From Candidatus Nomurabacteria bacterium (GTDB lineage Bacteria; Patescibacteriota; Minisyncoccia; Phycocordibacterales; UBA9973), in the NCBI GenBank assembly GCA_028286485.1, contig JAQBRM010000027.1, positions 10,632 through 74,631 of the forward strand: a DNA stretch of 64,000 nucleotides. Reading direction: 5' to 3'. The notes under the pieces are model-generated. The model saw only the letters and a program-made list of their open reading frames with translations, did not search any database and was not told the origin of the DNA. Both the position numbers and the translations under genes were made by a program. Each line of letters starts with the position of its first letter. Position 1 is the stretch's first letter. Of the stretch, positions 17,665 through 56,688 are shown one piece after another.

Positions 17665-18912
17665 TTATCTCCATACGGGCTGACGACGAGTGACAATGCT
17701 ATTCCACACTGCTTTCAATAGCCAGACCGGTGCAATGACCGTATAAATGATGATGTACAGCAAGATATGCCAGTCCAATCCCCGCCCCTGTCGACTGAGC
17801 CGTGAGCCTGCCACGATTGAAAAGATCAATAATACATAGAGCAAAATGGTAACAAAAAAGATTGTTTGCGTATTGATGTAAAACCAATTGAAGTTGATAT
17901 GGGTGTGGATGTTAAAACCAACCGTACTGTACTGGCTAACCTTCTTCAAAATAAAGACAATCAAGTCATAGAAAAATGTCAGTGACAAAAAGACTACTGC
18001 AATGATGGAAATAACACCGGAGGGCAGCGTGAAGAATGAGAAGTTAAGATAGTCCCTGTTGAATATCAATCGCTTATAATCCGCGGTATTTTGGATGAAA
18101 CCGTAGATCCAACGCAGGCGCTGCACATACAATTTCTTGATAGTGTCAGGAGAAGAAGTGTAGACTAGTGCATTGGCACAGTGTTCGATCTTCATATGGT
18201 TTTCTTGCATGCGATATGCCAATTCTTGGTCTTCGGTATTATGCGCTTTCTGAAATTTTCCGATACGCTCAAAGACGGTTCGACGGAAAAGAGAGAACGG
18301 TCCGGGAGTAACATGAATGGCCCCAAGAAACGACAGCATTTTTTTATTATAGGTACTCATATTGTACTCTACGCGCTGGGCGTACTGCAGCATGTTCTTG
18401 GGATTATGCACGATCAATGAAGGAGTTACTGCCATGACTTCGGGGTTTTTTTGAAACAATGCCACCATGCGCTTCAAGGCATCGGGCGCCACGAAAGAGT
18501 CCGCATCCAAGCCACCGATAATATCCGCATCCGTTTGATCAATGCCGAAGTTCACCGCCGTGTGTTTGCCCCCATTTTCCTTGTGGAAAATATGCACGCG
18601 CGGATTGTCTTTGTATTCTAACAGCTCTTGCCATGTCGTATCAGTACTGCCATCATCCACCGCGATAACCTCCAGCCTGTCGGTCGGATAATCAAGTGCA
18701 AGGAGAGAATTAATGGTACCGTGAACGGTTTTTTCTTCATTCCAACATGGCACAATAATGGCCACTTTAGGGGGATTAGTAATATCGGGCACTGGCTCAA
18801 TATGCGAATATTTCATTTTTTTAAGGTGTTCAAAATAGGTCACCAGCAGGAACACCTGTACGTATACGGCCAGAAATACGACCGTATACGTGATAATTTC
18901 CGGAATTGTCAT
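17665..18912 (-). CDS. processive family-2 glycosyltransferase (PgaC/NodC/cellulose-synthase-like)
   Basis: VIAVDDGSTD, DADSF (DxD) and QRLRWIYG (QxxRW) motifs. N-terminal and C-terminal TM helices. Confidence 0.85.
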   Translation of the reverse strand: MTIPEIITYTVVFLAVYVQVFLLVTYFEHLKKMKYSHIEPVPDITNPPKVAIIVPCWNEEKTVHGTINSLLALDYPTDRLEVIAVDDGSTDTTWQELLEYKDNPRVHIFHKENGGKHTAVNFGIDQTDADIIGGLDADSFVAPDALKRMVALFQKNPEVMAVTPSLIVHNPKNMLQYAQRVEYNMSTYNKKMLSFLGAIHVTPGPFSLFRRTVFERIGKFQKAHNTEDQELAYRMQENHMKIEHCANALVYTSSPDTIKKLYVQRLRWIYGFIQNTADYKRLIFNRDYLNFSFFTLPSGVISIIAVVFLSLTFFYDLIVFILKKVSQYSTVGFNIHTHINFNWFYINTQTIFFVTILLYVLLIFSIVAGSRLSRQGRGLDWHILLYIIIYTVIAPVWLLKAVWNSIVTRRQPVWR

Positions 18913-44873: not shown

Positions 44874-45458
44874 CTACGAAAGGCGGGGGTTTTTTGGTGC
44901 ATTACTGCCGGTCGTGGCAATAGCCTTTTGTAATAAGGCAATACCTCGCCGATAGAGGCTTTTCACTGTATTGAGGGGCTTGCCTGTGACGCCGGAAATT
45001 TCTTCAAATGTCAGATCATCTTCGGCACGCAATATCAAAATTTCACGGTACACAACCGGTAACTGTTCAATGGCCGTATTGAGATTTTCCTTCCGCTCTC
45101 GGGCAATAGCTATTTCTATAATATCAATACTCTCATCCTCAAAAACCGCATCGGCTTCTCCTTCTTCACTGAAATAAGAGAAGGGAATATTTTTCTTTTT
45201 ACGAAGGTGGTCAATGGCGGTATTGCGCGCAATTCGAAAGAGCCACGGGCGAAGACCGGAGCCTCCTTTGAAACGACCCAACTGACGCCAAACCTTAATG
45301 AAGGTTTCTTGAACAATATCTTCAGCTGCGCTGGTATTGTGTACAAACCGATAGACATAGCTATAAATGCCGGCAAAATGCCGCTCGATCAATATGACGA
45401 GTGCGGCTTCATTCCCTTTTCGGTAGGCATCGATAAGCTGCTCGTCTGATTGTTCCAT
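44874..45458 (-). CDS. ECF-type RNA polymerase sigma factor (sigma70 regions 2 and 4)
   Basis: Region 2 AEDIVQETFIKVWRQL...RPWLFRIARNTAIDHLRK. Region 4 LPVVYREILILRAEDDLTFEEISGVTGKPLNTVKSLYRRG. Confidence 0.85.
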   Translation of the reverse strand: MEQSDEQLIDAYRKGNEAALVILIERHFAGIYSYVYRFVHNTSAAEDIVQETFIKVWRQLGRFKGGSGLRPWLFRIARNTAIDHLRKKKNIPFSYFSEEGEADAVFEDESIDIIEIAIARERKENLNTAIEQLPVVYREILILRAEDDLTFEEISGVTGKPLNTVKSLYRRGIALLQKAIATTGSNAPKNPRLS

Positions 45459-45487: not shown

Positions 45488-46381
45488 TTACTGAGGGAGA
45501 AATTTGAAACCCTGCATGATACTGTTGAGATCATTATGAACCTGTACCGAATTATAAGCACTGACCCCCATGCTTGGGTCAAAATTTGCCAATACGACAT
45601 AGTGAATAGTGTATTCAATGGCATAACACTGACCGTTACGCACCGTACGATAACTGGTGGTTTCATATCGATTGCCCGCACCCGCATCAGTGGAGACAAA
45701 GGTGGTATACGGTACGCCATTAATGGTAGTAGCGGATTTAGTTACGCCGTTACCGCTGATATCGTTCAAACAATTTGTAACGGCCTTGGGATCACTGGAA
45801 GTACCGACGGTGAACTTGGCATCACCGAAATTTGTTTTCGGCTGATAACTTTGCGGTACATTCACGGTGGCTAAAACAAGTCCCAATGTGCCATCACTAT
45901 TGGCTTTCCAATCTTGTGTGTAGCCAATGCCGCCGCCCGCCAAGCTGAAAGCTTGAGGGTACGTAAAGGTAAATGTCTTGCCCTGATCGGTGAAGGATTT
46001 CAAACCGTTAGTAGCAGTACCGGCGGTGCCGGTCAGACAATTATTATAGGTGGTGGCAGTACCCTCTTTCAAAAATGCTTGGTCGCCTTTATTAATAAAT
46101 AATATGGTCCCTTGCTGGTACTGTGCGCCATCCGCGGCAATAATTTGAGGCAATGTAAGGTGACGCCCGTCAGAAAGAGTCAGATTTACACTACCATCAG
46201 AAAAGCTTGCGGTGATAGTACTGCCGCTATCACAGGTAAACAATGCGGTGGCAGTCACGGGCTGAGTAACCGGTGGAATCGCTGCCGGAATCGGAGTCGA
46301 CCCTTTATGCACAAAGCTGTACCCTACGATGAGCACCAATACCAATAATACGATATAAAATACCATTCTTTTAAATGTCAT
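45488..46381 (-). CDS. secreted/membrane-anchored protein with an N-terminal MliC-like (lysozyme-inhibitor fold) domain and an unknown C-terminal domain
   Basis: N-terminal TM helix. ALFTCDSGSTITASFSDGSVNLTLSDGRHLTLPQIIAADGAQYQ resembles the MliC family. The remainder is G/T-rich with no match. Confidence 0.45.
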   Translation of the reverse strand: MTFKRMVFYIVLLVLVLIVGYSFVHKGSTPIPAAIPPVTQPVTATALFTCDSGSTITASFSDGSVNLTLSDGRHLTLPQIIAADGAQYQQGTILFINKGDQAFLKEGTATTYNNCLTGTAGTATNGLKSFTDQGKTFTFTYPQAFSLAGGGIGYTQDWKANSDGTLGLVLATVNVPQSYQPKTNFGDAKFTVGTSSDPKAVTNCLNDISGNGVTKSATTINGVPYTTFVSTDAGAGNRYETTSYRTVRNGQCYAIEYTIHYVVLANFDPSMGVSAYNSVQVHNDLNSIMQGFKFLPQ

Positions 46382-46414
46382 ACATTCAGTATACGCCCCT
46401 CTTTACAGATAGCA

Positions 46415-47142
46415 AAATAAATGGGGACAGGCCCCTTTTTAGTTTTTCTTTAACGGTCATATGTAATGATAGAGAAATGCCAAGACAACCAAGAAATGAT
46501 ACTGGTAATCGAATCTATCATGTAATTAATCGAGCAAATGCGCGGCTTAAAATATTTGAAAGTGACTCAGATTATGAGCTTTTTGAGAATTTATTAATGA
46601 AAGCCCTGAGTCGTTTTTCCATAAAACTATATGCATATACCAATATGCCCAATCATTTCCATTTAGTGCTTTATTCTGAAAAACCTGCTGAGGTTTCAAA
46701 ATTCATGCACTGGTTAAGCGGTGCTTTTACCCAACATTGGCATACTCGACATGCCACCATGGGAAGCGGTCATCTATTTCAAGGCCGGTACAAATCATTT
46801 CCTATTCAAAATGGAAACCACTTACTGCAAGTATTGTTATATGTTGAACGAAATGCAGTTCGTGCAAAATTAGTTAAAAGAGCGGAAGAATGGAGATGGT
46901 GTAGTGCGTGGATAAGAAAATACGGAAATGAAAAGCAAAAGAAAATGCTTTCAGAATGGCCTATTGATGTGCCCAAAGATTATTTGAATGTTTTAAATAA
47001 AACCGATGATGAAAATATTTTAAAAGACATTAGATTCTCTATTACAAAAAGTGTTTCTATTGGGTCAGAGGGAAAAAGACCGCGAGGGCGACCTAGAAAG
47101 AAATAAAGATATTCTAAAAAGGGGCCTGTCCCCATTTATTTA
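46415..47142. mobile_element. REP–RAYT–REP unit: IS200-like Y1 (HuH) transposase gene flanked by perfect 28-bp inverted REP-like termini
   Basis: Left end aaataaatggggacaggcccctttttag. Right end ctaaaaaggggcctgtccccatttattt is its exact reverse complement. Each end contains a GGGGaCAGGCCCC hairpin. The interior is AT-rich. Confidence 0.7.
46477..47106 (+). CDS. REP-associated tyrosine transposase (RAYT; IS200/IS605 TnpA-like Y1 HuH transposase)
   Basis: HuH motif MPNHFHLVLY and a catalytic Tyr context LLYVERNAVRAKL (Y1_Tnp family pattern). The start MPRQPRND lies internal to the 46375 track ORF, which reads through the left REP. Confidence 0.8.
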   Translation: MPRQPRNDTGNRIYHVINRANARLKIFESDSDYELFENLLMKALSRFSIKLYAYTNMPNHFHLVLYSEKPAEVSKFMHWLSGAFTQHWHTRHATMGSGHLFQGRYKSFPIQNGNHLLQVLLYVERNAVRAKLVKRAEEWRWCSAWIRKYGNEKQKKMLSEWPIDVPKDYLNVLNKTDDENILKDIRFSITKSVSIGSEGKRPRGRPRKK

Positions 47143-47374
47143 CCAATGATTCTTTTTGGGGGCGAGTTAGGCGTTTCAATTCCCCTTCACGGCGACGAAC
47201 TTCGGCGTAAGTAGGAAATGATTCGCTGTAGACGAGGGTTACGGGGCGGCGGATTTTGGTGTAGTGCGCGCCGGCTTTCGAATTATTATGCTGATAAAGC
47301 CGGCGCTCCATATTGTTGGTGGAACCAACATAGTACGTGCCATCATTGCACTGCAAGATGTACGCGTGGAACAT
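47114..47374 (-). CDS. GIY-YIG nuclease-family protein (YhbQ/UPF0213-like)
   Basis: YILQCNDGTYYVGSTNNMERRLYQHN is the GIY-YIG motif. The last 7 codons and the stop (KWGQAPF*) are supplied by the right REP of the RAYT unit. Confidence 0.75.
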   Translation of the reverse strand: MFHAYILQCNDGTYYVGSTNNMERRLYQHNNSKAGAHYTKIRRPVTLVYSESFPTYAEVRRREGELKRLTRPQKESLVNKWGQAPF

Positions 47375-47893
47375 TTAAATTTTTCGTGCCCGCCATATGC
47401 GAGCAGCAATTGTTACAAGGATAGTAACCAGAATAACCGCTATGAAGGCAATAAAAGGATTGGGCACGATAGAGGTGATACCGAGCACGAGTAACCAGCT
47501 GGTAATATAGAAAATCATGTTGCCGACAAACAGGTAGAAAAAACTTTCCGCAAATGAGATGTCGAGCCAGGCGGTGATGAAGGCATTGAGGTACGGAAAG
47601 CTGAAATAGCCCAATAGCACCAGATAAATCTTCCGTTGGTGCTTGCCCATGTAGGCGGTAAGCCGCAGCGACCATTTCACCGCAAATGCTTTTACCTTGC
47701 CATTATTGAACCTTTTTTTGGCATAACGTCCGATTGCATAGCCGATAATAATATCAACCGTAGTGGCGATGATGAATAACAGGGTGATGATCCATATCGA
47801 ATAATCCCATTGATGGGTTTTTACCAGCAGTCCGTTCAATGTAACGGTTTCTTGAACGAACAGTATTAGTATCACCCACGGCCATTGCTTCAT
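47375..47893 (-). CDS. hypothetical integral membrane protein (4–5 TM helices)
   Basis: 172-aa hydrophobic ORF, translationally coupled to flanking genes in the glycan operon. Confidence 0.4.
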   Translation of the reverse strand: MKQWPWVILILFVQETVTLNGLLVKTHQWDYSIWIITLLFIIATTVDIIIGYAIGRYAKKRFNNGKVKAFAVKWSLRLTAYMGKHQRKIYLVLLGYFSFPYLNAFITAWLDISFAESFFYLFVGNMIFYITSWLLVLGITSIVPNPFIAFIAVILVTILVTIAARIWRARKI

Positions 47894-47896
47894 AGT

Positions 47897-48649
47897 TTAA
47901 AATACATCAAATTGCAGATACAGCGGCGCGTGATCAGAGACCACATCCGGCATAACCTTGAAATCCTCCACTAATACTTCCGGTGATACGAACACATAGT
48001 CGGAATGCTGATCATCGCCGGTATAGAGCGGCGTGCGCGTGGAGGTGACGCCGTACTTGCTGATGAGGTTGGTGAAATTCTTTTCCAGCAGTTTGATGCT
48101 TTCGGTCTGCGCATTGAGATTGAAATCCCCCACCATTATTTTCGGTGTCAGCCCGACGGATTCGATGAAGTCGTTGAGGATTTTCGATTGCTGCAAACGG
48201 TTCGGCGTGTCATCTCTGCCGCGGGCATCCCAGTGGCCGTGCACATTCATGATCATGACATCCTTGCGTCCGTGCTGGATGTGCATCCATTGCATCTTGC
48301 GGGTATGATCGCTGGTTTTGTCATGGGGATCAAAGTCCGGATTTTCATACATGACCAGCTCACCACTGGCAATCAGTCCGATGCCTTTTTTCAAAAAGAT
48401 GGCAATGCCAAAAACATTCTCGGCAATGGGACAGAAGTACTGATCGAAGTCAGCCAGAATATCAGTGATTTCCTGCAGGATATTGCCATTGCCTTCATCG
48501 TGATTGATGTAGTCGCCGGTCGCCCCGTCGTAATTATTGAAAATTTCCTGGAAACAAAAAATATCCGTTTCCACCATGTGCTCCTTCAAAAAAGCGTCAA
48601 ACGCCGCTTTTTCCCGTCCAGCCCATGTGTTAAGCGTGATTAATTTCAT
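47897..48649 (-). CDS. endonuclease/exonuclease/phosphatase (EEP) family protein
   Basis: MKLITLNTW...DIFCFQEI N-terminal EEP signature, conserved D/H residues toward the C-terminus. 250 aa. Confidence 0.75.
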   Translation of the reverse strand: MKLITLNTWAGREKAAFDAFLKEHMVETDIFCFQEIFNNYDGATGDYINHDEGNGNILQEITDILADFDQYFCPIAENVFGIAIFLKKGIGLIASGELVMYENPDFDPHDKTSDHTRKMQWMHIQHGRKDVMIMNVHGHWDARGRDDTPNRLQQSKILNDFIESVGLTPKIMVGDFNLNAQTESIKLLEKNFTNLISKYGVTSTRTPLYTGDDQHSDYVFVSPEVLVEDFKVMPDVVSDHAPLYLQFDVF

Positions 48650-48669
48650 ATTGTACCCCTACTATACCA

Positions 48670-50214
48670 TCAATTAGCTTGTGCATACACATCTTTGACA
48701 TTGCGAACCAGCGTATTCCCTTTCACGGTGATATCAATGGCCTTATGTAAAAAGACTCCCGCATTCGGCATACCGGTCACCGTGTTGCCGATAATCGATA
48801 CGTGATCAGTATTATCATCCATATAAATACCATTGACCGGCACATAGCCGGCATCATTCGTACCGGCGGTAGCGCCCTTCCCTCCACTAATGATATTCCC
48901 CGTAATTTGTCGGTTGGAATGCACCAACGGCGGCGTGAAGCCATTCCACGTATAAATACCCGCCCCATCATCAGTCACCGAACAAAAATTCGCCACGGTG
49001 TTATTTTTCACTACCGCGCCATTGCCGGAAAAATAAATACCGGTATAGCCGCTGTGACGGATACTATTTTGTGAAATAATTTCATTATCATTTCCAACAG
49101 CCTCGGCCACATAGATACCGATCAATGAGGCGGGGCCATTACCGCCCATTCCCGCTTTCATGCCGATAGTGGTAATACTGTTATTGCTAATGGAAGCATT
49201 GCCCGATCCACCCGCAAATGAGAAAAAGATACCATTATTATTGGCAGTATCAATGGTGGAATGCTGCAAGGTGAAATAATTCGCTTGATCAAGATCAATA
49301 CCGTCGGTGCCGGAAAAACCGATGGCAATATTTTGTAAGGAAACATTGGTGCTGTTTGATACCGCAACACCGCTCGTGGTCGATCCTTGAAATGACAACC
49401 CGTTCAATACGATGTAGTTTTTTGCAATAGTGGCCAGCACTGGTACGGTGCTTACTTTCGCTGCATAAGAAGAAGGGTCGGCTGAGCCAAAATACATTTC
49501 CAGATTTTTTGTCACCGGATTGAAATACCACTCGCCGAGCTGATCAAGTGTTTGCGGACTGTTTTGAATGAAAAAACCGAATCCGTCCGTCGGCTGGCTG
49601 GTGGAGACAGCGTGGGCAACGGTAGTGCCTGATTGTGCGGTGATGGCATATTTATCCAACTGCCAGCGATAGTCGCGTATCACGACGTCAGCACCGGTCC
49701 AAGAACCGGCCAGCGCGGGACTGGTAATGGAATTCACACTATGTGAAGCAATGGTAAGATAGCCGCCATTGACCGCATCAGCATTGGGATACCGCCCGAT
49801 TTGTTGCTCAATATTGTTCAGCGTCACCATATTCACGGTTGATCCGCAATACGCACAAGGAGCTTGCCAAATTCCCCCACCGACCGAGGTCCACCCTGAC
49901 AACGCGGTGAAGCCGCTGATAACAGGTTTTGCTCCACTGCCGTACGCGCCGAAGAAAATCGGCTTGCGAGCAGTGCCGGAAACATTTGGCATTAAGGCGC
50001 CGTACCATGTGCCGCCTTTTTTAAAAAGGATACGATCTCCCGGCTGAAATGCGGTGGCATTCACCTTGTCCACTGTTTGCCATGGGGCATGAACACTGAT
50101 ACCCGTATTACCATCATTTCCTTTAGGATCAATATAATAAGTAGCCGCTGATACTGCCGCTATGCGGGCGCACAGCAAAAAGGCCGTTATGAGCAGTACC
50201 TTCCACTTATTCAT
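48670..50214 (-). CDS. secreted right-handed parallel beta-helix repeat protein (pectate-lyase/NosD-like fold)
   Basis: Signal peptide. The start YYIDPKGNDGNTG...PWQT is typical of beta-helix proteins. Repeated short G/N/T-rich beta-strand turns. Confidence 0.65.
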   Translation of the reverse strand: MNKWKVLLITAFLLCARIAAVSAATYYIDPKGNDGNTGISVHAPWQTVDKVNATAFQPGDRILFKKGGTWYGALMPNVSGTARKPIFFGAYGSGAKPVISGFTALSGWTSVGGGIWQAPCAYCGSTVNMVTLNNIEQQIGRYPNADAVNGGYLTIASHSVNSITSPALAGSWTGADVVIRDYRWQLDKYAITAQSGTTVAHAVSTSQPTDGFGFFIQNSPQTLDQLGEWYFNPVTKNLEMYFGSADPSSYAAKVSTVPVLATIAKNYIVLNGLSFQGSTTSGVAVSNSTNVSLQNIAIGFSGTDGIDLDQANYFTLQHSTIDTANNNGIFFSFAGGSGNASISNNSITTIGMKAGMGGNGPASLIGIYVAEAVGNDNEIISQNSIRHSGYTGIYFSGNGAVVKNNTVANFCSVTDDGAGIYTWNGFTPPLVHSNRQITGNIISGGKGATAGTNDAGYVPVNGIYMDDNTDHVSIIGNTVTGMPNAGVFLHKAIDITVKGNTLVRNVKDVYAQAN

Positions 50215-50218
50215 ATAT

Positions 50219-51706
50219 TTAATAGCGCAATTTATATTCGTATAAATTCAAGTCGAGAGAGAAATTCTTCACCAACAATCGCTGATAATGAGTGTCGAAA
50301 TACAGACGCAGCGGTTCTTCATACCCTTGGTTGTAACTGAGCAGCAGCCACAGATTCTGATGGTTTTGGGTGATGGTTGCCACTTGAGCCGGCAGTGTCG
50401 CCGCATCAAAGGGTGGTATCGGACCATAGTGGGAGCGATCCCAGATCGGTAAAGTGGTCAGCGTAGAGGAACCATGGTAGTAATATTCCACCGGATAAAT
50501 AGTGAACGGCGCAGACACCACAATAGTATCATCGGCAGTCGCGTGGGCAGTCAAATAGTCCGTGGCTTGCTGGTAATTTTCCTTCACCGGTGTAAATGCA
50601 CTGAACGCTTCAATGAACAGCATGCCCACCATGACCACTACCAGCACGATTTCAAAGAATCGCTTGAAATTCGGCGGCAGATTATTGAGAAAGGCGATGA
50701 TGCAGAGATAGAGCGGCGGCAAGCTCAGGATGAGGTACCGGCTGAGGTAGAGCGGGCGGAAAATACTGCTGACAATAAACGCCAGCGCCATCGGCACGAT
50801 CAGCGCCGTGATGAAATACATGGTCTCGCTGGACGGTCTTTTTTTGCTTTTCTGCAACCCAAAGAAGCCGAACAGCACCAGCAGCGGCCACATCGAGACT
50901 AGAATGGTATTAACGTAATCTATCTGAAAGCCGAATAAGAATTGGGAAAAAGTATTGAAGATGTCAACAGTGGTGGGTGCTTCGAGCTGGGGCGAGCTGT
51001 TGCTGATGGTGCCCAAGTGAAGCACATAGTACAGCCACGGACTGATGGCAAGCAATAAAATCATAATGACGGCGAGAAATTTTTTGAAATCCCCCTTCTG
51101 GAACAAATCCTTGTTAAAAAGATAGAACAACGCTTGACTGACAAGGGAGAACCAGAAAAAATAGTGCGTGAAGATACCGACTAATGACACGAGACCGTAC
51201 AGGAACCAATATCCGCCACGACGCTCCGCATCGGCCGTCTTGTACAATTTGAGGAAAAAGTACTGATGCAAAATGACGACGAAAGTGAAGAGACTGTACA
51301 TGCGGATCTCATTGCCGTACCAATTCATGAACGGGGAAATGGAAAGCAACAATGCCGCATACAGTCCGGCATTTTTATTGTAAGCCAGTTTGCCAAGAAA
51401 ATAGATGGCCGGAATGGATAATACAAAAAATACCATGGACAATGCCCGGCCGGTCGCCACGCCATTGCCGAGAAAGACCTGCCAAAAATGCAGCATCAGG
51501 TGATAGAGCGGCACGTGCACGTCTTGGGCGATGATGTTGAATATCTTCAGGGGCGAGCGGCTGGTTTGCCACAAGCTTTGCGCTTCATCGAGCCGCAAGC
51601 TCTGTCGTGAAAAAATAAACACGGACAAGGAGATAATAAAGAGGATCATCGCGCTCAGCGCCAACGTCACTTTGTATTTGTAGAAAAATGCCGGTGGTTT
51701 TTTCAT
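50219..51706 (-). CDS. GT-C fold glycosyltransferase of the PMT/ArnT (GT39/GT83-like) family
   Basis: Multi-TM N-terminal region with a DE-containing first loop (LRLDEAQSLW) and a periplasmic C-terminal domain. 495 aa. Confidence 0.7.
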   Translation of the reverse strand: MKKPPAFFYKYKVTLALSAMILFIISLSVFIFSRQSLRLDEAQSLWQTSRSPLKIFNIIAQDVHVPLYHLMLHFWQVFLGNGVATGRALSMVFFVLSIPAIYFLGKLAYNKNAGLYAALLLSISPFMNWYGNEIRMYSLFTFVVILHQYFFLKLYKTADAERRGGYWFLYGLVSLVGIFTHYFFWFSLVSQALFYLFNKDLFQKGDFKKFLAVIMILLLAISPWLYYVLHLGTISNSSPQLEAPTTVDIFNTFSQFLFGFQIDYVNTILVSMWPLLVLFGFFGLQKSKKRPSSETMYFITALIVPMALAFIVSSIFRPLYLSRYLILSLPPLYLCIIAFLNNLPPNFKRFFEIVLVVVMVGMLFIEAFSAFTPVKENYQQATDYLTAHATADDTIVVSAPFTIYPVEYYYHGSSTLTTLPIWDRSHYGPIPPFDAATLPAQVATITQNHQNLWLLLSYNQGYEEPLRLYFDTHYQRLLVKNFSLDLNLYEYKLRY

Positions 51707-53238
51707 ACGGCAACTTCAATTGTTTCCTTCGGCTGAGGGGTTTGTTCCGGTAATGCGAGATAAATGAACTGGGTGAATATGACAGTATTCAACAAGGCCC
51801 ACGCCATATTAGCCATGACGGAGGCACTGACACCCTCGCGATGAACGGCCACGATCAGACCGGCGGCGATCAGCACGATGTAAACGATGTGTATTTTGAC
51901 CAAGTACAGGAAGTTGCCGGTCAATTTCTTTTTTGATGTTATTTCAAACTTTGGCTTATGTCCGGTAATCACTGACCATAATGCTTCCAAATGAATACTG
52001 AAGGAGCTCATGGAAAATGCCAAGGAACGGAAGGTGTAGGAGAAGTTGGTGGATCCCTGCAGCGTGTACAGCGTCACGAAAATGTACGGTAGGAAGATCA
52101 ATGCCAAGAGCATGGTAGCCACCACGACCGGTACCAAGCCGGTGAAGAAAAATACCACCGGAATCAGCGCGTTCATGATAATGATCAATCCCGACACGTA
52201 GAATGAGGCGGAAGCCAAGTATTGGATGCGCTGTGTCAGTGTCAATCCCTTGCGAAACAGCACGTTGTACTTGAAGATCAGATCGAGACCGCCGCGGGCC
52301 CAGCGAAACTGCTGCTTGTAGTACGATAGGAAGTCTTCCGGGGCCAATCCCTCGGCCAAGACTTCCCCGACATAGGCGGATTTGAAGCCGTGCTCATGGA
52401 GAAACATGCCGGTAGCAAAATCTTCCGCAATGCTTTCCTCGCACATGCCGCCGACTTCCAACAGCATCTCCTTGCGAATGGCCATATTGGTGCCGCACAT
52501 GGTGACGGCATTCAATCGATTCTTGCCCCGGCAGATCGGCCCGAAAAACAGCTCCTGTTGCTCCCATGCCCCGCGGGTGACTTCATTGAGGTAGTAATTT
52601 TTATAGTACTGGGGCGATTGCACGAATGCCATTTTCGGATCGCTGAAATGCGGCATCATTTTCAAAAGAAAATCCGGATGCGGCACATGGTCGGCATCAA
52701 ATATGACAATGAAAGGGTTGTCAGTTTGCCGCAGCGCGTTGTTGATATTGCCGGCTTTGGCTCCCCCGCCGACTTTGCGGGTAATGACTTCCACACCGTG
52801 GGTTTGAGCTACCATTTCGGCCTCTTGCCAATTGTCTCGGTGCGCCACGTAGCCATCATTCAATATATACACTTTGAATTCGGGATACTCCATGGCTTTG
52901 ATAGCCACGATTGTTTCTTCAATGATTTCTTTGGGCTCGCCCGCTACGGTCACGTATATATCAACCGGCGGATGAAAGTTCGGGTCGGGCGGCGTAATGC
53001 CTTTGGTATTCCAGATGGTGTAGAGGAAGGTCAACAGCTGCCACAAGTGGAACACCTCTCCGGCAATCAGCAGGCCGAACAGCACTTTGTTGCCGATCGG
53101 GAAAAAGAACGCCAATAGAATGAAGTATGTCAACAGCAGCACGACGTTCAATATCACCAATCCTTTCGGGGTGGTGGTGTTCAAGAATCTTTTTTGATCT
53201 TTCGGTGTTTTTTTTGAATTGAATAATCGTATGCGCAT
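51703..53238 (-). CDS. processive GT2 glycosyltransferase, cellulose-synthase (BcsA/CESA)-like catalytic subunit without a PilZ domain
   Basis: YILNDGY, DADHVP (DxD), a TED-like EDFATG and QQFRWARG (QxxRW). TM helices on both sides of the catalytic domain. Confidence 0.85.
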   Translation of the reverse strand: MRIRLFNSKKTPKDQKRFLNTTTPKGLVILNVVLLLTYFILLAFFFPIGNKVLFGLLIAGEVFHLWQLLTFLYTIWNTKGITPPDPNFHPPVDIYVTVAGEPKEIIEETIVAIKAMEYPEFKVYILNDGYVAHRDNWQEAEMVAQTHGVEVITRKVGGGAKAGNINNALRQTDNPFIVIFDADHVPHPDFLLKMMPHFSDPKMAFVQSPQYYKNYYLNEVTRGAWEQQELFFGPICRGKNRLNAVTMCGTNMAIRKEMLLEVGGMCEESIAEDFATGMFLHEHGFKSAYVGEVLAEGLAPEDFLSYYKQQFRWARGGLDLIFKYNVLFRKGLTLTQRIQYLASASFYVSGLIIIMNALIPVVFFFTGLVPVVVATMLLALIFLPYIFVTLYTLQGSTNFSYTFRSLAFSMSSFSIHLEALWSVITGHKPKFEITSKKKLTGNFLYLVKIHIVYIVLIAAGLIVAVHREGVSASVMANMAWALLNTVIFTQFIYLALPEQTPQPKETIEVAV

Positions 53239-53250
53239 AATGGTATGTAT

Positions 53251-54513
53251 CTAATTTGTAAGAGGGGTCGATGAAGCGGGGGCGACCAGATTCGGCAGGA
53301 GATTCTGATACAAACCGATGCCGAACCATGTCCAGTTGTCATCGTAATATCCCAAGGGTGTGCGCCATGCATTGGTATCGGGATTATAGAGAATGGCCAG
53401 TTTTTGATTATAGACTTCTGCGGCATTTTTGGGATCGCTCACTATGAAATAACCGATCACCCCGCCATATAGTGCGGGAACTTCCGTTTCGTCCCCTGCC
53501 AATGTGCCGTCATGGGCGTAGTTCACTGACAGGGATTTTGCCGCAGTCCATTGTTTTGAGAAAAAATTCAAGGAATCAAGCAGTTGTTTGTCACGGGGAT
53601 CGCCGTACCATTGCCAGTCCAATGCCAAGCGCCACGGCACGCGCAAGGCATCGTAACCATAGTTGGTCGTGAGACCGGCAGCGGTAGCGGCTGTTACCGC
53701 ACCGGTCTGCCTATTCACTTGGACCCAGTCGGGAGGAATGTTGGCACTGGTATTCTTATCAAGCGGGGAGGCAATACTTTGGGTGAGAATATCATATGAG
53801 CTATCGATCACTCCTTGCCAATCATGCTTGCTGTCCACTGCGGCGAACATACGATACTCGTACGGCGCAAAGTAGGAAGGGTCTACCAACACCTTATCGG
53901 GTGAGAGGTGCTCCACATCATTGGCCACCAGCACCGGCTTGCCATTGATGACGACGACTTCGTTTTTCCAGATGTCGGCAATCAGGGCTTGCGCTTGATC
54001 CATATAAGACTGATCACCCCAACGGCCGTAGGCGAACAACAAACTCATCGCCATGTCAGTTTCAGCGTCGGTAGCGGAGTTTTGTCCGCCCTTGCTCGTC
54101 AGGATGGTATAGTTGCCGGGAGATTGTTCGCCGAAGACCCACGCGTGGAGATTGTCATTTTTGTGTTTCAAGATATCCTGCGTCCATTTCAAGCTGGCAT
54201 CAAACGTGGCTTTGTCATCCATCCAGACGGCACGCAGCATGGTGTAGCTCTGCCCTTCCGACGTGGTGAGGTTGTTCTGCTGCTTATCCAGTGTGCGATT
54301 GCTGCCGGCTTCCAAATAATCTACTTTGTAAGTATTCCATGTATTTTCCAATACTTCTTTCGGAGAAAAAATAACCGGTACTTGCCGCTTCCGACTGTTG
54401 ATGAATTTCACCACGATAAAAAGCAGCGCGGCGAAGCAAATCAGGCTGATGCCGATATAAAATGAATTGGTTGGTTTTTTTATAGGTGGGATATTCATAC
54501 GCCGAAAAATCAT
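53251..54513 (-). CDS. glycoside hydrolase family 8 (BcsZ/endoglucanase-like), membrane-anchored
   Basis: SEGQSYTML and ATDAETDMAMSLLFAYGRW match the GH8 catalytic-region signatures. N-terminal TM helix. Confidence 0.8.
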   Translation of the reverse strand: MIFRRMNIPPIKKPTNSFYIGISLICFAALLFIVVKFINSRKRQVPVIFSPKEVLENTWNTYKVDYLEAGSNRTLDKQQNNLTTSEGQSYTMLRAVWMDDKATFDASLKWTQDILKHKNDNLHAWVFGEQSPGNYTILTSKGGQNSATDAETDMAMSLLFAYGRWGDQSYMDQAQALIADIWKNEVVVINGKPVLVANDVEHLSPDKVLVDPSYFAPYEYRMFAAVDSKHDWQGVIDSSYDILTQSIASPLDKNTSANIPPDWVQVNRQTGAVTAATAAGLTTNYGYDALRVPWRLALDWQWYGDPRDKQLLDSLNFFSKQWTAAKSLSVNYAHDGTLAGDETEVPALYGGVIGYFIVSDPKNAAEVYNQKLAILYNPDTNAWRTPLGYYDDNWTWFGIGLYQNLLPNLVAPASSTPLTN

Positions 54514-55055
54514 GAGAAGGTAAAGAGCGCTGCCAAACGCCGCGCGATGAATCTCGGCCGACCGATGACCAGGATCAGTCCGGATAATGCCGTGATGCCG
54601 CTGATGGCATATAAAATCTTTGTTGTCAGCGGTCGGAAGCCTTTTTCAATGTAAGGATCAGTGGGAATGAAACTCTGCATGATATCGTAGACGACACTTT
54701 TATAAGGAGTTGGTGCGGCGACAACTGCCGGTGCTGGCGGCGCAGGGGTCGGGGTTTTTTTAACAGGGTTAGCAGGCTTAACGGTAGTGATCACCGGCGT
54801 AACGACCGGGGATTGCGTAGCCGGTTCCGGTGATACGGGAGTAATGACAGGCAACGGTTGGTCTTGCGTCTGTTGATCCGGCAGGGATTGATCGGGTTGC
54901 TGCTGAATAATGTCGTAGACACTCCGAGTGTGACGTGCGCCGTGCGTATCGGAATTATCTTGAGCCTGCACTGCCGAACAATGCAATAATATAAACAATA
55001 ACAAAAATGCCCCTGAGAATGTAAAATATATATTTTTATTGCTATATTTTTTCAT
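54510..55055 (-). CDS. secreted Pro/Thr/Val-rich protein with a C-terminal TM anchor (hypothetical)
   Basis: Signal peptide, PVITPVSPEPATQSPVVTPVITTVKPANP... low-complexity region, C-terminal hydrophobic helix. First gene of the operon. Confidence 0.4.
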   Translation of the reverse strand: MKKYSNKNIYFTFSGAFLLLFILLHCSAVQAQDNSDTHGARHTRSVYDIIQQQPDQSLPDQQTQDQPLPVITPVSPEPATQSPVVTPVITTVKPANPVKKTPTPAPPAPAVVAAPTPYKSVVYDIMQSFIPTDPYIEKGFRPLTTKILYAISGITALSGLILVIGRPRFIARRLAALFTFS

Positions 55056-55115
55056 ACTATTTATATACTCTACCCCATTCTTTTCGAGAATGGAAGTATC
55101 TGATATATTGAATAT

Positions 55116-56258
55116 ATGGACACAGAAAAACCCGTTTCTCTATCAGTTTTTTTTCCAGCCTACAATGAAGAGGCCAATATTGAAAACAGCGTAGCGGAAG
55201 CGGAAATGATTTTAAAAAAGCTGGGCATTGTCTATGAGATCATCATCGTCAATGACGGCAGCCGCGACAAGACCGCCGTCATTGCCGATCGTCTGGCCGC
55301 CGAAAATGATTGCATCAAGGTCGTGCACCACCATCCCAACCGCGGCTACGGCGCCGCCTTGTGGAGCGGCATCCAAGCGGCGCGTTATCAGTACGTCTTC
55401 TTCACCGATGCGGACTTGCAGTTCGATCTGTCGGAGCTGGCCATCCTCATGCACTTCGTACCGGAGTACAAGGTGGTGCTGGGATATCGCGCACCGCGAC
55501 GCGATCCTTTCTTGCGATTACTCAATGCCAAGGCATGGAATTTCCTGAATCGCTTCTTGTTCGGCTTGAAAGTGAAGGACATCGACTGCGCGTTCAAGCT
55601 GATGGATCGCGAGCTGGTCGCCTCGCTGCCGATCAAGACACGTGGTGCCATGATGACAGCCGAGATGCTCATTCGCTTGCAGCGGCGGAAAGTCGTCTTC
55701 AAGGAAATTCCGGTCTCGCATTTTCCTCGTGTTGAGGGTGAAGCGACCGGTGCCAAACCGGAGGTGATCCTCCGCGCCTTCAAAGAACTGTGGGTGCTAT
55801 TCAAGGGCCGTTTGGGCGCGATCGGCCGCCGCCAGCTGGTGCGTTTTGCCGCCGTGGGAGTGGCCAATACCTTGATTGATCTGGGCTTGTACTATGTGCT
55901 GACGCGCACGGTGCCATTCTTCAGTGTGCATATGTTTGTGGCCAAGGCCCTTTCCTTCCTGACCGGTACGGTCTTCAGCTTCTTCGTCAACCGCATCTGG
56001 ACCTTCAAGAAACAGACTCCCCTTAAAACCGCCGAGCTCATCCGTTTCTACCTCAGTGTCGGCGTGGCATTGCTTATCAATCTGCTCTCCCTGTCCTTCT
56101 TCACCAAGGTCCTTCATCTGTATGATCTCATCGGTGTCATCGGCGCCACTGTTGTGACATTCGTCTGGAACTTCATCGCCTCCAAACTCTGGGTCTACGC
56201 CGAATCCGTTCCTATCAAACGTCCCCGTTTCTTCAAACGCCGCCGTAATCTTAATTAG
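55116..56258 (+). CDS. polyprenyl-phosphate glycosyltransferase (DPM1/GtrB/ArnC-like GT2) fused to a C-terminal GtrA-family membrane domain
   Basis: VFFPAYNEE...IIIVNDGSRD...TDADLQFD DxD. C-terminal four TM helices with GtrA-like FAAVGVANTLIDLGLYYVL...FFVNRIWTFK. Confidence 0.85.
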   Translation: MDTEKPVSLSVFFPAYNEEANIENSVAEAEMILKKLGIVYEIIIVNDGSRDKTAVIADRLAAENDCIKVVHHHPNRGYGAALWSGIQAARYQYVFFTDADLQFDLSELAILMHFVPEYKVVLGYRAPRRDPFLRLLNAKAWNFLNRFLFGLKVKDIDCAFKLMDRELVASLPIKTRGAMMTAEMLIRLQRRKVVFKEIPVSHFPRVEGEATGAKPEVILRAFKELWVLFKGRLGAIGRRQLVRFAAVGVANTLIDLGLYYVLTRTVPFFSVHMFVAKALSFLTGTVFSFFVNRIWTFKKQTPLKTAELIRFYLSVGVALLINLLSLSFFTKVLHLYDLIGVIGATVVTFVWNFIASKLWVYAESVPIKRPRFFKRRRNLN

Positions 56259-56263
56259 GACAA

Positions 56264-56467
56264 TTATTTCTTCTTTGTTGTTTTCTTTTTCGCTGCCTTC
56301 TTTGGCACCTTATCTCCTTCTTTTCTGGCCTCTGAAATTCCAATCGCTATGGCCTGCTTCCCGCTCGTCACTTTCTTGCCCGACCTGCCGCTCTTCAACT
56401 TGCCTTCGCCATACTCATGCATGACCTTGCTTACTTTCTTCTGTGCTTTTGTTCCATACTTTGCCAT
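56264..56467 (-). CDS. small basic protein (DUF6496-like), Lys-rich tail
   Basis: MAKYGTKAQKKVSKVMHEYGEGKLKSGRSGKKVTSGKQAIAIGISEARKEG, then KKAAKKKTTKKK. Confidence 0.5.
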   Translation of the reverse strand: MAKYGTKAQKKVSKVMHEYGEGKLKSGRSGKKVTSGKQAIAIGISEARKEGDKVPKKAAKKKTTKKK

Positions 56468-56614: not shown

Positions 56615-56688
56615 TGTGGAATCGTCTAATGGTAGGACAACGGTTTCTGGTACCGTTTATCTTGGTTCGAGTCCAGGTTCCACAGCCA
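56615..56688 (+). tRNA. tRNA-Gln (anticodon CUG), CCA encoded
   Basis: Acceptor stem TGTGGAA/TTCCACA, D-arm GTCT-AATGGTA-GGAC, anticodon stem ACGGT/ACCGT with loop TT-CTG-GT, T-arm CTTGG-TTCGAGT-CCAGG, discriminator G and CCA. A hairpin at about 56692..56710 follows. Confidence 0.85.

Follow-up and report, generated by a model that had tools for sequence, protein, structure and literature searches.

Gene arrangement at the locus and the enzymes encoded

The stretch of DNA considered here, hereafter the window, comprises 64,000 nucleotides of a contig from a Candidatus Nomurabacteria bacterium (JAQBRM010000027.1, positions 10,632 to 74,631; assembly GCA_028286485.1) and is chromosomal: rpoB, rpoC, dnaG, uvrABC, mreB, ddl and a sigma-70 gene are all aboard. 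The g3 protein described below is identical to one encoded in an NCBI metagenome-assembled genome that bears the name Candidatus Nomurabacteria. Within it lies a run of eight minus-strand genes, labeled g1 to g8 in order of transcription, and a ninth gene, g9, that is transcribed divergently from the plus strand (Table 1). The run includes genes for a family 8 glycoside hydrolase (GH8; g2), a processive family 2 glycosyltransferase (GT2; g3) resembling the cellulose synthase subunit BcsA, and a glycosyltransferase of the GT-C fold (g4), and in g9 a second GT2 domain is joined to a GtrA-type transmembrane (TM) domain. We consider it rather probable that g9 and g1 to g4 encode an envelope-polysaccharide system of five genes, in which a beta-1,4-glucan is decorated by the GT-C enzyme with a sugar taken from a polyprenyl-phosphate carrier and is trimmed by the GH8 enzyme.

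The locus had previously been described from its letters alone (the sequence-only reading) as a set of nine genes, and all nine open reading frames (ORFs) are present. Each of the domain calls then made is confirmed by Pfam, with NCBIfam in support; g1 and g7 match nothing in either collection. The run was also said to be tight and mostly overlapping. The spacing is indeed tight, but the wording overstates the overlaps: g1/g2 and g3/g4 overlap by 4 nucleotides each, and the remaining gaps within g1 to g8 are 0 to 20 nucleotides long. Counted from the first ATG in the window, which gives the 181-residue form of g1, 60 bp separate g1 from g9. The JGI gene call for g1 is 201 residues long (L001:1211-1816) and starts directly beside the g9 start codon, so that the region between the two genes measures between 0 and 60 bp (55056-55115) depending on the start chosen. 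The core genes (48000-56000) have a G+C content of 0.46 to 0.57, as compared with 0.38 to 0.44 to the right of position 56000.

Table 1. Genes of the minus-strand run and the divergent gene (coordinates are those of the window; aa, amino acids)
Gene	Predicted product	Coordinates	Strand	Length
g1	Small Pro/Thr-rich bitopic protein	54510-55055	-	181 aa
g2	Membrane-anchored GH8 glucanase	53251-54513	-	420 aa
g3	PilZ-less BcsA-like processive GT2 synthase	51703-53238	-	511 aa
g4	ArnT/PMT-like GT-C transferase	50219-51706	-	495 aa
g5	Secreted right-handed beta-helix protein	48670-50214	-	514 aa
g6	EEP-family hydrolase, cytoplasmic	47897-48649	-	250 aa
g7	4-TM membrane protein	47375-47893	-	172 aa
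g8	GIY-YIG protein	47114-47374	-	86 aa
g9	GtrB-like GT2 fused to GtrA-type TM domain	55116-56258	+	380 aa

In Pfam, g3 is a GT2 protein with a Cellulose_synt match. A GT-A domain lies between two N-terminal TM helices and a C-terminal TM bundle, and we propose that the protein is both the polymerase and the translocation channel. Its best matches in the PDB are structures of BcsA (4hg6, 5ej1 and 7lby; E = 1e-49), with other synthases at 4e-9 or weaker. The alignment covers BcsA residues 85 to 564, taking in the final pair of N-terminal helices, the GT domain and the helices at the C terminus; it stops at approximately 564 to 576, ahead of the PilZ domain, and g3 itself ends at residue 511. The best NCBIfam profile is CelA (TIGR03030, 262 bits), followed at a distance by PgaC (79) and NodC (49). 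An AlphaFold2 model of g3 (pLDDT 81) gives a TMq of 0.80 to E. coli BcsA (9b8v_E) and of 0.79 to Rhodobacter BcsA (4p00_A), and TM-scores of 0.68 to 0.72 to plant CesA, 0.39 to 0.63 to hyaluronan synthases and approximately 0.4 to chitin synthases.

The sequence-only reading had seen in g3 a BcsA-like GT2 with DxD, TED-like and QxxRW motifs, and on alignment the full set of D, DxD, ED and QxxRW is found (NDG127-129, DAD181-183, AED271-273 and QQFRW309-313). Across 77 homologs D128, KAGN161-164, D181xD183, G249-T250-N251 and E272-D273 are invariant, as are Q309, R312 and W313 of QQxRW and F431, T434 and K436 of an FxVTxK loop, and C248 (75/77) and Q310 (76/77) are nearly so. The residue preceding ED is A in 62 homologs and T in 15, such that AED replaces the TED of BcsA in most of them. 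The FxVTxK loop aligns with the FAVTAK segment of BcsA; a gating loop of this type is typical of cellulose synthases. The synthase is called BcsA-like because sequence, profile, fold and invariant motifs agree (1e-49, 262 bits and TMq 0.80 for the first three). The absence of PilZ, BcsB and BcsC, which had also been claimed, is borne out: Pfam finds no PilZ domain in g3, neither BcsB nor BcsC occurs among the nine locus genes or the long window ORFs scanned, and BcsB is not a recurrent neighbor across 80 related loci.

The g2 protein belongs to Pfam GH8 (PF01270, 1.6e-46) and has a single N-terminal TM helix (residues 20-38), which is predicted to place the catalytic domain outside the cell. 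Its best PDB matches are CelA of C. thermocellum (1cem, 3e-26) and BcsZ (3qxf, 5e-20), and its 127 bits with the BcsZ model NF008305 fall short of the cut-off of 299. Both the GH8 call and the SEGQSY signature reported earlier were found, the latter at residues 85 to 90, and the GH8 domain is intact. The SEG, ATDAD and YDA motifs of CelA, with its catalytic Glu95, Asp152 and Asp278, have their counterparts in g2 at E86, D149 and D288; of 78 homologs, 70 keep the first of these residues, 72 the second and 68 the third. By analogy with BcsZ, g2 is proposed to be a trimming or release enzyme.

Pfam assigns g4 to PMT_2 (2.6e-11; 44 bits against a cut-off of 26), and the protein has some 9 to 11 TM helices followed by a C-terminal extracytoplasmic alpha/beta domain with many invariant Tyr and Trp residues. 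A sequence search of the PDB gave no match. The AlphaFold2 model (pLDDT 83.6) has the GT-C fold, with ArnT (5ezm, TMq 0.59) as the best match, and then STT3, PglB, ALG9 and Pmt4. In its fold, the protein is as near to ArnT or STT3 as to Pmt4. The first loop carries the motif LRLDEAQS, in which D40 is conserved in 67 and E41 in 70 of 71 homologs. The model for Rv1635c-type mannosyltransferases gives 43 bits against a cut-off of 900, and the JGI family name is mannosyltransferase. We propose that g4 is an extracellular transferase that uses a polyprenyl-phosphate sugar.

Such a sugar could be supplied by g9, which matches PF00535 (2.6e-26) and, at residues 243 to 360, PF04138 (GtrA_DPMS_TM, 3.8e-25). 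The best PDB matches of g9 are GtrB (sll0501, 5ekp, 4e-16) and ArnC, and its NCBIfam matches, ArnC, PgfS, AglJ and PpgS, all fall under their cut-offs. The proposal is that g9 is a polyprenyl-phosphate sugar synthase and flippase module that feeds g4; the identity of the lipid-linked sugar is one that we infer.

The small protein g1 has TM segments at residues 11 to 29 (signal or TM) and 147 to 165 with a Pro/Thr-rich linker between them. An ortholog with 40% identity occupies the same position in the nearest relatives, and jackhmmer detected no homologs beyond these. Two roles can be envisaged, that of a rapidly evolving companion of the synthase and that of an acceptor for O-glycosylation, and the choice is taken up below.

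Recurrence of the gene set and natural fusions

A scan of species-representative genomes gave at least 600 candidate stretches, at least 405 of which encode a relative, and the best 80 loci were retained. The nine window proteins were searched against all ORFs of the related loci, and other neighbors were found by de novo clustering of the neighboring genes of the 80 loci. The adjacency of GH8, GT2 and GT-C genes recurs in essentially all 80. Where the GT2 is flanked on each side by 3.2 kb or more, as is the case in 54 loci, a GT-C gene adjoins the GT2 in 54/54 and a GH8 gene does so in 49/54. The order is GH8-GT2-GTC in 45 loci, GH8-GTC-GT2 in three and GTC-GT2-GH8 in one, and the five loci that lack GH8 (GTC-GT2 in four, GTC-GT2-GTC in one) are, according to the locus maps, all distant actinobacterial ones. 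This arrangement is far beyond chance, and the comparison with related genomes that the sequence-only reading had called for thus came out decisively in favor of a syntenic core triad.

In the two closest relatives, with synthases 78% identical to g3, a divergent GT2-GtrA gene is followed by the g1 ortholog, GH8, GT2 and GT-C, and then by an unrelated convergent gene. From this layout the conserved unit consists of g9 together with g1 to g4, five genes in all. The idea of an eight-gene operon acting as one system can therefore be ruled out: the conserved part stops after the GT-C gene, and g5 to g8 are absent behind it in these relatives and have no counterpart beside the core in related loci. 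Specifically, no homolog of g5, g6 or g7 was found in any of 82 related loci, and for g8 there were two weak matches in a single locus (L010), approximately 7 kb from the triad.

The extent of this recurrence also bears on the possibility that unrelated neighbors were brought together by chance in a compact genome. In genomes of the Candidate Phyla Radiation (CPR) the genes are densely packed and many of them form runs on one strand, and g5 to g8 are indeed unrelated passengers. Against this stands a core triad that is kept in 80 loci across phyla, with its order rearranged and its parts fused in many proteins. Chance juxtaposition is thereby refuted for g1 to g4 and g9 and holds only for g5 to g8; as an account of the whole it is very improbable.

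Carriers within the CPR include Paceibacteria, Saccharibacteria, Microgenomates, Levyibacteria, Blackburnbacteria, WWE3, Dojkabacteria, Gracilibacteria and Doudnabacteria. The system is not specific to the CPR, as cultured Actinobacteria, Geodermatophilaceae among them, also have it: Klenkia, Geodermatophilus, Quadrisphaera and "Streptomyces sp. NP160" carry it at approximately 50% identity. Cultured carriers include Klenkia soli DSM 45843, Geodermatophilus chilensis B12 and G. maliterrae WL48A. Further loci come from Coriobacteriia, Acidimicrobiia and Thermoleophilia, at 37 to 39% identity. In a neighbor-joining tree of the synthase, which is crude and without support values, the Klenkia/Geodermatophilus/Quadrisphaera/"Streptomyces sp. 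NP160" clade is nested within the CPR beside a Saccharimonadales group, and midpoint rooting sets the Coriobacteriia, Acidimicrobiia and Thermoleophilia apart as the outgroup. Gene exchange is plausible, since Saccharibacteria live as epibionts on Actinobacteria, and the nesting suggests transfer between the two. Triads of the CPR type also occur in metagenome-assembled genomes labeled Chloroflexi, Acidobacteriaceae, Verrucomicrobiia and "uncultured Gammaproteobacteria" (L023, L025, L032, L050, L053, L055, L064, L066, L069 and L074). These cluster with Microgenomates or Paceibacteria and are probably mislabeled bins or contaminating contigs.

Beyond the triad, a small GtrB/ArnC-type GT2 gene lies within 10 kb in 36 of the 80 loci and often abuts it; one such protein aligns end to end with ArnC (1.3e-55). 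A gene of the GH6 cellulase family stands beside the triad in 26/80 loci, usually convergent and just past the GT-C gene, and GH8 with GH6 is the commonest pairing of hydrolases. GH113 genes are present in six loci (L003, L005, L014, L015, L043 and L059) and in L088 (9022-10911), and their products share an N- or C-terminal immunoglobulin-like module with the neighboring GH6 proteins. The window contains neither GH6 nor GH113. In loci of the Geodermatophilaceae/Quadrisphaera type (L039, L040, L041, L042, L044 and L047) a GT4 gene is found directly upstream of GH8.

A search with the GT-C protein of the full protein library, a follow-up search and Pfam scans revealed natural fusions of these components. 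Proteins of approximately 1000 residues, in which the N-terminal half is the synthase and the remainder a GT-C domain, form at least 12 distinct CPR clusters, and their ORFs are unbroken in independent assemblies from NCBI, JGI and Logan. There are some 20 further clusters of GT2 and PMT_2 fusions at approximately 30% identity, of which the three named ones are all from Actinomycetota, e.g., Gaiellaceae. The C terminus of BcsA and the N terminus of ArnT-type GT-C enzymes are both cytoplasmic, and the topology of the fusion is therefore consistent. Where the synthase is fused to GH8, an additional TM helix precedes the hydrolase domain, reminiscent of the membrane anchor of g2. Other fusions are of the synthase to GtrA, of a small GT2 to the synthase and, in more distant relatives, of the synthase to GH26; all four of these architectures were checked with Pfam. 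Two loci that encode the synthase-GT-C fusion illustrate the setting: L085 has, in this order, genes for a small GT2, GH8, the fusion and GtrA, and L088 has GH6, GH8, the fusion and GH113, with genes for a nucleoside diphosphate (NDP)-sugar pyrophosphorylase and an epimerase upstream. For each component of the proposed pathway there is thus some protein that contains it in one polypeptide with the synthase, and this is strong evidence for a single pathway. The earlier suggestion that g9 and g4 resemble a lipid-linked donor and transferase pair is backed by synteny and by the domain fusions.

The set of fused synthase relatives also includes proteins P0400, P0468, P0478, P0486, P0488 and P0446, in which the partners are GtrA, small GT2, protein kinase, GH26 and GH8 domains; in one member of 1616 residues a synthase relative is fused to dockerin and Big_7 domains.

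A proposed pathway and its alternatives

On the basis of these data the following model can be outlined. The synthase g3, operating without PilZ and BcsB, would polymerize a beta-1,4-linked glucan from a uridine diphosphate (UDP)-sugar on the cytoplasmic face and extrude the chain through a channel formed by its own six helices. The GtrB/DPM1-like GT2 domain of g9 would make a polyprenyl-phosphate sugar, and its GtrA-type domain would present this sugar on the outer leaflet. Positioned beside the exit of the channel, and fused to the synthase in some lineages, g4 would then move the lipid-linked sugar onto the emerging chain. The outcome would be a cellulose-like polymer decorated with glycosyl groups and presumably located at the cell surface. 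The membrane-tethered endoglucanase g2 would trim or release the chains, as BcsZ does, and g1 would act as an accessory partner. A beta-1,4-glucan fits the locus because the GH8 enzyme has a conserved catalytic triad and is closest to cellulases and BcsZ, and because GH6 accompanies the triad in 26/80 loci.

Several observations weigh against this model. The synthase reaches none of the curated equivalog cut-offs (262 against 699 bits for TIGR03030 and 199 against 992 bits for NF008558), and it is therefore termed BcsA-like and not BcsA. The acceptor-site motif FFCGS of BcsA is replaced by MCGTN (residues 247-251), the first position of which is variable among homologs; together with AED for TED in most homologs, this means that the sugar specificity of g3 is something we infer. 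Members of GH113 and GH26, which are mannanase families in CAZy, accompany some relatives or are fused to them, and mannose in the branches or the backbone is therefore possible. A GT2 for a polyprenyl-phosphate sugar lies within 10 kb in just the 36/80 loci noted above, and a protein, for example the Pro/Thr-rich g1, might take the place of the glucan as acceptor of the GT-C enzyme. The crudeness of the synthase tree and of the statistics on g1-like genes given below counts here as well, as does the breadth of the GH8 and GH6 families, which also include chitosanases and xylanases (PMC9040799).

Some of these points raise the question of whether the polymer is of a different kind, i.e., a beta-mannan, a glucomannan, a chitin-like polymer or a mixed-linkage glucan, or whether lipid-linked oligosaccharides are assembled outside the cell by the GT-C and GH8 enzymes. 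MCGTN in place of FFCGS and scores under the cellulose synthase cut-offs would suit such a polymer, as would the GH113 genes in six loci and L088, the NDP-sugar genes beside the latter, GH26 fused to distant relatives, and the chitosanases and xylanases within GH8. Synthesis via lipid-linked oligosaccharides was, reportedly, an old proposal for Agrobacterium CelABCDE. The synthase is, however, clearly nearest to BcsA in both sequence and fold, the FxVTxK gating loop is kept, and GH8 with GH6 is the commonest hydrolase pairing. Moreover, enzymes of the BcsA type add sugars to the non-reducing end of the chain and work without a lipid primer, which counts against the lipid-primed variant. We regard a different polymer as unlikely and retain the decorated beta-1,4-glucan.

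Another possibility is that g4 and the sugar supplied by g9 modify g1 or other secreted proteins, as in actinobacterial O-mannosylation by Pmt and Ppm1 (GT39), and that the resulting glycoprotein anchors or organizes an undecorated glucan. The two systems share a polyprenyl-phosphate sugar synthase, a PMT_2 GT-C enzyme and Pro/Thr-rich candidate acceptors nearby. The PMT_2 score lies above the gathering cut-off, the JGI label is mannosyltransferase, the operon of the nearest relatives begins with g1, and both g1 and its positional analogs have Pro/Ser/Thr-rich extracellular stretches between two TM anchors, which are typical targets. These analogs were recognized by architecture: a small same-strand ORF with a C-terminal TM segment adjoins GH8 in 26 of 62 loci, and 20 of these 26 ORFs add an N-terminal hydrophobic segment, compared with approximately 6% of all ORFs of similar size, a statistic that is crude. 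On the other side, g1-like genes are found in only about 26/62 loci and in none of the actinobacterial ones, whereas GT-C is present in 54/54. Fusions between synthase and GT-C are more readily understood if the sugar is transferred to the product of the synthase, and the invariant Tyr and Trp residues of the C-terminal GT-C domain would be expected for binding of a glycan. The similarity of g4 to characterized mannosyltransferases is also weak, and unlike Ppm1/Pmt the genes are tightly coupled to a polysaccharide synthase. Protein O-glycosylation therefore appears rather unlikely as the main function, and the glucan is the acceptor that we prefer.

A third alternative is that the GT-C protein has replaced BcsB as an obligatory partner that stabilizes the synthase and guides the chain, with its transferase activity secondary or lost, and that the product is plain cellulose. 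The GT-C gene occupies the position of bcsB right after the synthase gene and is sometimes fused to it, much as BcsA and BcsB are fused in AcsAB of Komagataeibacter. Further, no BcsB was found among the locus genes and scanned window ORFs, and more than half of the loci have no lipid-sugar GT2 next to the triad. However, the GT-C protein varies hardly at all in its catalytic DE motif and in further residues of the loops, which argues that enzyme function is retained, and GtrB-like and GtrA domains are themselves fused to the synthase. A scaffold role in place of catalysis is accordingly quite unlikely in our view.

The proposed decoration pathway has likenesses to several known systems. As in BcsA-BcsB-BcsZ(-BcsC), the synthase has D, DxD, ED, QxxRW, the FxVTxK loop and its own membrane channel, and a GH8 enzyme is encoded alongside. 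In contrast to Bcs there is no PilZ, and so no control by cyclic di-GMP, and there is no BcsB, BcsC or BcsG; g3 has just two TM helices ahead of the GT domain, MCGTN for FFCGS and scores below the curated cut-offs, and the GH8 enzyme is TM-anchored, whereas BcsZ is soluble and periplasmic. Complexes of E. coli BcsA-BcsG (PDB 9fmz and 9b8v) were among the fold-search matches of g3, and by analogy this pair is the nearest precedent for modification of cellulose during export. As there, a second membrane enzyme that uses a lipid donor, here g4, appears to be coupled to the synthase; BcsG is an alkaline-phosphatase-type phosphoethanolamine transferase, whereas the coupled enzyme at this locus is a GT-C glycosyltransferase. 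In a recent preprint, E. coli BcsA-BcsG is described as modifying cellulose during export (bioRxiv 10.64898/2026.08.24.745826).

The second likeness is to three-component systems, in which a GT2 (GtrB/CsbB/ArnC), a GtrA flippase and a GT-C enzyme (GtrC/YfhO/ArnT) cooperate. All three components are present here, the first two combined in g9 and the third as g4 with its DE motif. Glycosylation of wall polymers by GT-A/GtrA/GT-C systems is a general extracytoplasmic scheme (PMC13390465). The known acceptors are O-antigen, teichoic acids, lipid A, arabinogalactan and proteins, and unlike in those systems the components at this locus are tied genetically, and in some lineages covalently, to a synthase-dependent polymerase.

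Among monoderm bacteria, the nearest analog is CslA-GlxA-CslZ(-LpmP), which serves a cellulose-like glycan at the apical sites of Streptomyces and in which a cellulose-synthase-like GT2 without PilZ or BcsB is accompanied by an adjacent GH6 enzyme, CslZ, encoded on the opposite strand (PMC9040799). The synthases are alike in lacking PilZ and BcsB, and GH6 stands beside the triad in the related loci as noted. The systems differ in that no lytic polysaccharide monooxygenase and no GlxA copper oxidase belong to the one described here (a GlxA-type copper radical oxidase was not seen among the locus genes or the recurrent neighbors of related loci), GH8 and GT-C are obligatory, and the window is without GH6.

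A full-text literature search that combined cellulose synthase with CPR lineages, Geodermatophilaceae genera, GT-C, GH6 and GtrA found no description of the combination, in agreement with the earlier claim that it is not a described system. PMC8812541 was considered as a possible prior description and proved irrelevant. Public annotation labels the parts separately as "cellulose synthase (UDP-forming)", "mannosyltransferase" and "GT39". Each part is of a known kind; what is new is that a BcsA-like synthase is obligatorily coupled to a GT-C enzyme together with the lipid-sugar supply of the latter.

The CPR/Patescibacteria, many lineages of which carry the gene set, are very diverse, mostly uncultured epibionts with an almost unknown surface chemistry. 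If the model is correct, it names a surface polymer of CPR cells and places a third way of altering cellulose-type polymers on their way out of the cell beside acetylation and the addition of phosphoethanolamine. It would also provide a case of a synthase-dependent polymerase with a GT-C enzyme hard-wired to it. The module is present in culturable Geodermatophilaceae and Quadrisphaera, so the hypothesis is open to genetic and chemical tests, which is rare for a CPR feature, and the nesting of the actinobacterial genes in a CPR clade hints at exchange between the epibionts and the phylum of their hosts. The strongest form of the claim combines all of this: a GT-C enzyme docked on or fused to a minimal cellulose synthase glycosylates the nascent beta-glucan, the product is the first glycosyl-decorated synthase-dependent "cellulose" and a widespread CPR/Patescibacteria envelope polymer free of cyclic di-GMP control, and the gene set has been exchanged between Saccharibacteria and their actinobacterial hosts. 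Taken jointly, we put this forward only tentatively, as something that may well turn out not to hold in full. A role of the polymer in attachment to a host would be speculation.

Tail genes, flanking sequence and a second synthase gene

The genes downstream of g4 are probably lineage-specific passengers that are co-transcribed with the core. Pfam identifies Beta_helix (3.7e-14) and NosD in g5, Exo_endo_phos (the endonuclease/exonuclease/phosphatase, or EEP, family) in g6 and GIY-YIG in g8. The g5 protein has a signal-like TM segment at residues 6 to 24, and its N-terminal region resembles lacto-N-biosidase (6kqs) and alginate lyases; judged by these resemblances it probably acts on carbohydrates as a hydrolase or lyase. 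Behind g8 there is a terminator-like hairpin at 47094-47077, and scans for promoters and terminators gave counts no different from those in shuffled sequence.

Tail to tail with g8 lies an IS200-like Y1_Tnp gene (46375-47106, plus strand), and the segment 46400-46999 has the lowest G+C content of the region (0.36). A reading of g6 to g8 and this transposase as a defense island was considered and rejected, PADLOC giving no matches. Further to the left, a gene for an extracytoplasmic function (ECF)-type sigma factor (44874-45458, minus strand) adjoins one for a 297-residue protein with an MliC lysozyme-inhibitor domain (45488-46381, minus strand). On the other side of the locus, g9 is immediately followed by a DUF6496 gene (56264-56467, minus strand) and then by a tRNA-Gln(CTG) gene (56615-56688, plus strand).

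The window encodes a second GT2 of the processive type, 415 residues long (17665-18912, minus strand), with a Chitin_synth_2 match and PgaC/IcaA as its best NCBIfam profile (2e-53, below the cut-off). Through this enzyme the cell may produce a second synthase-dependent polymer.

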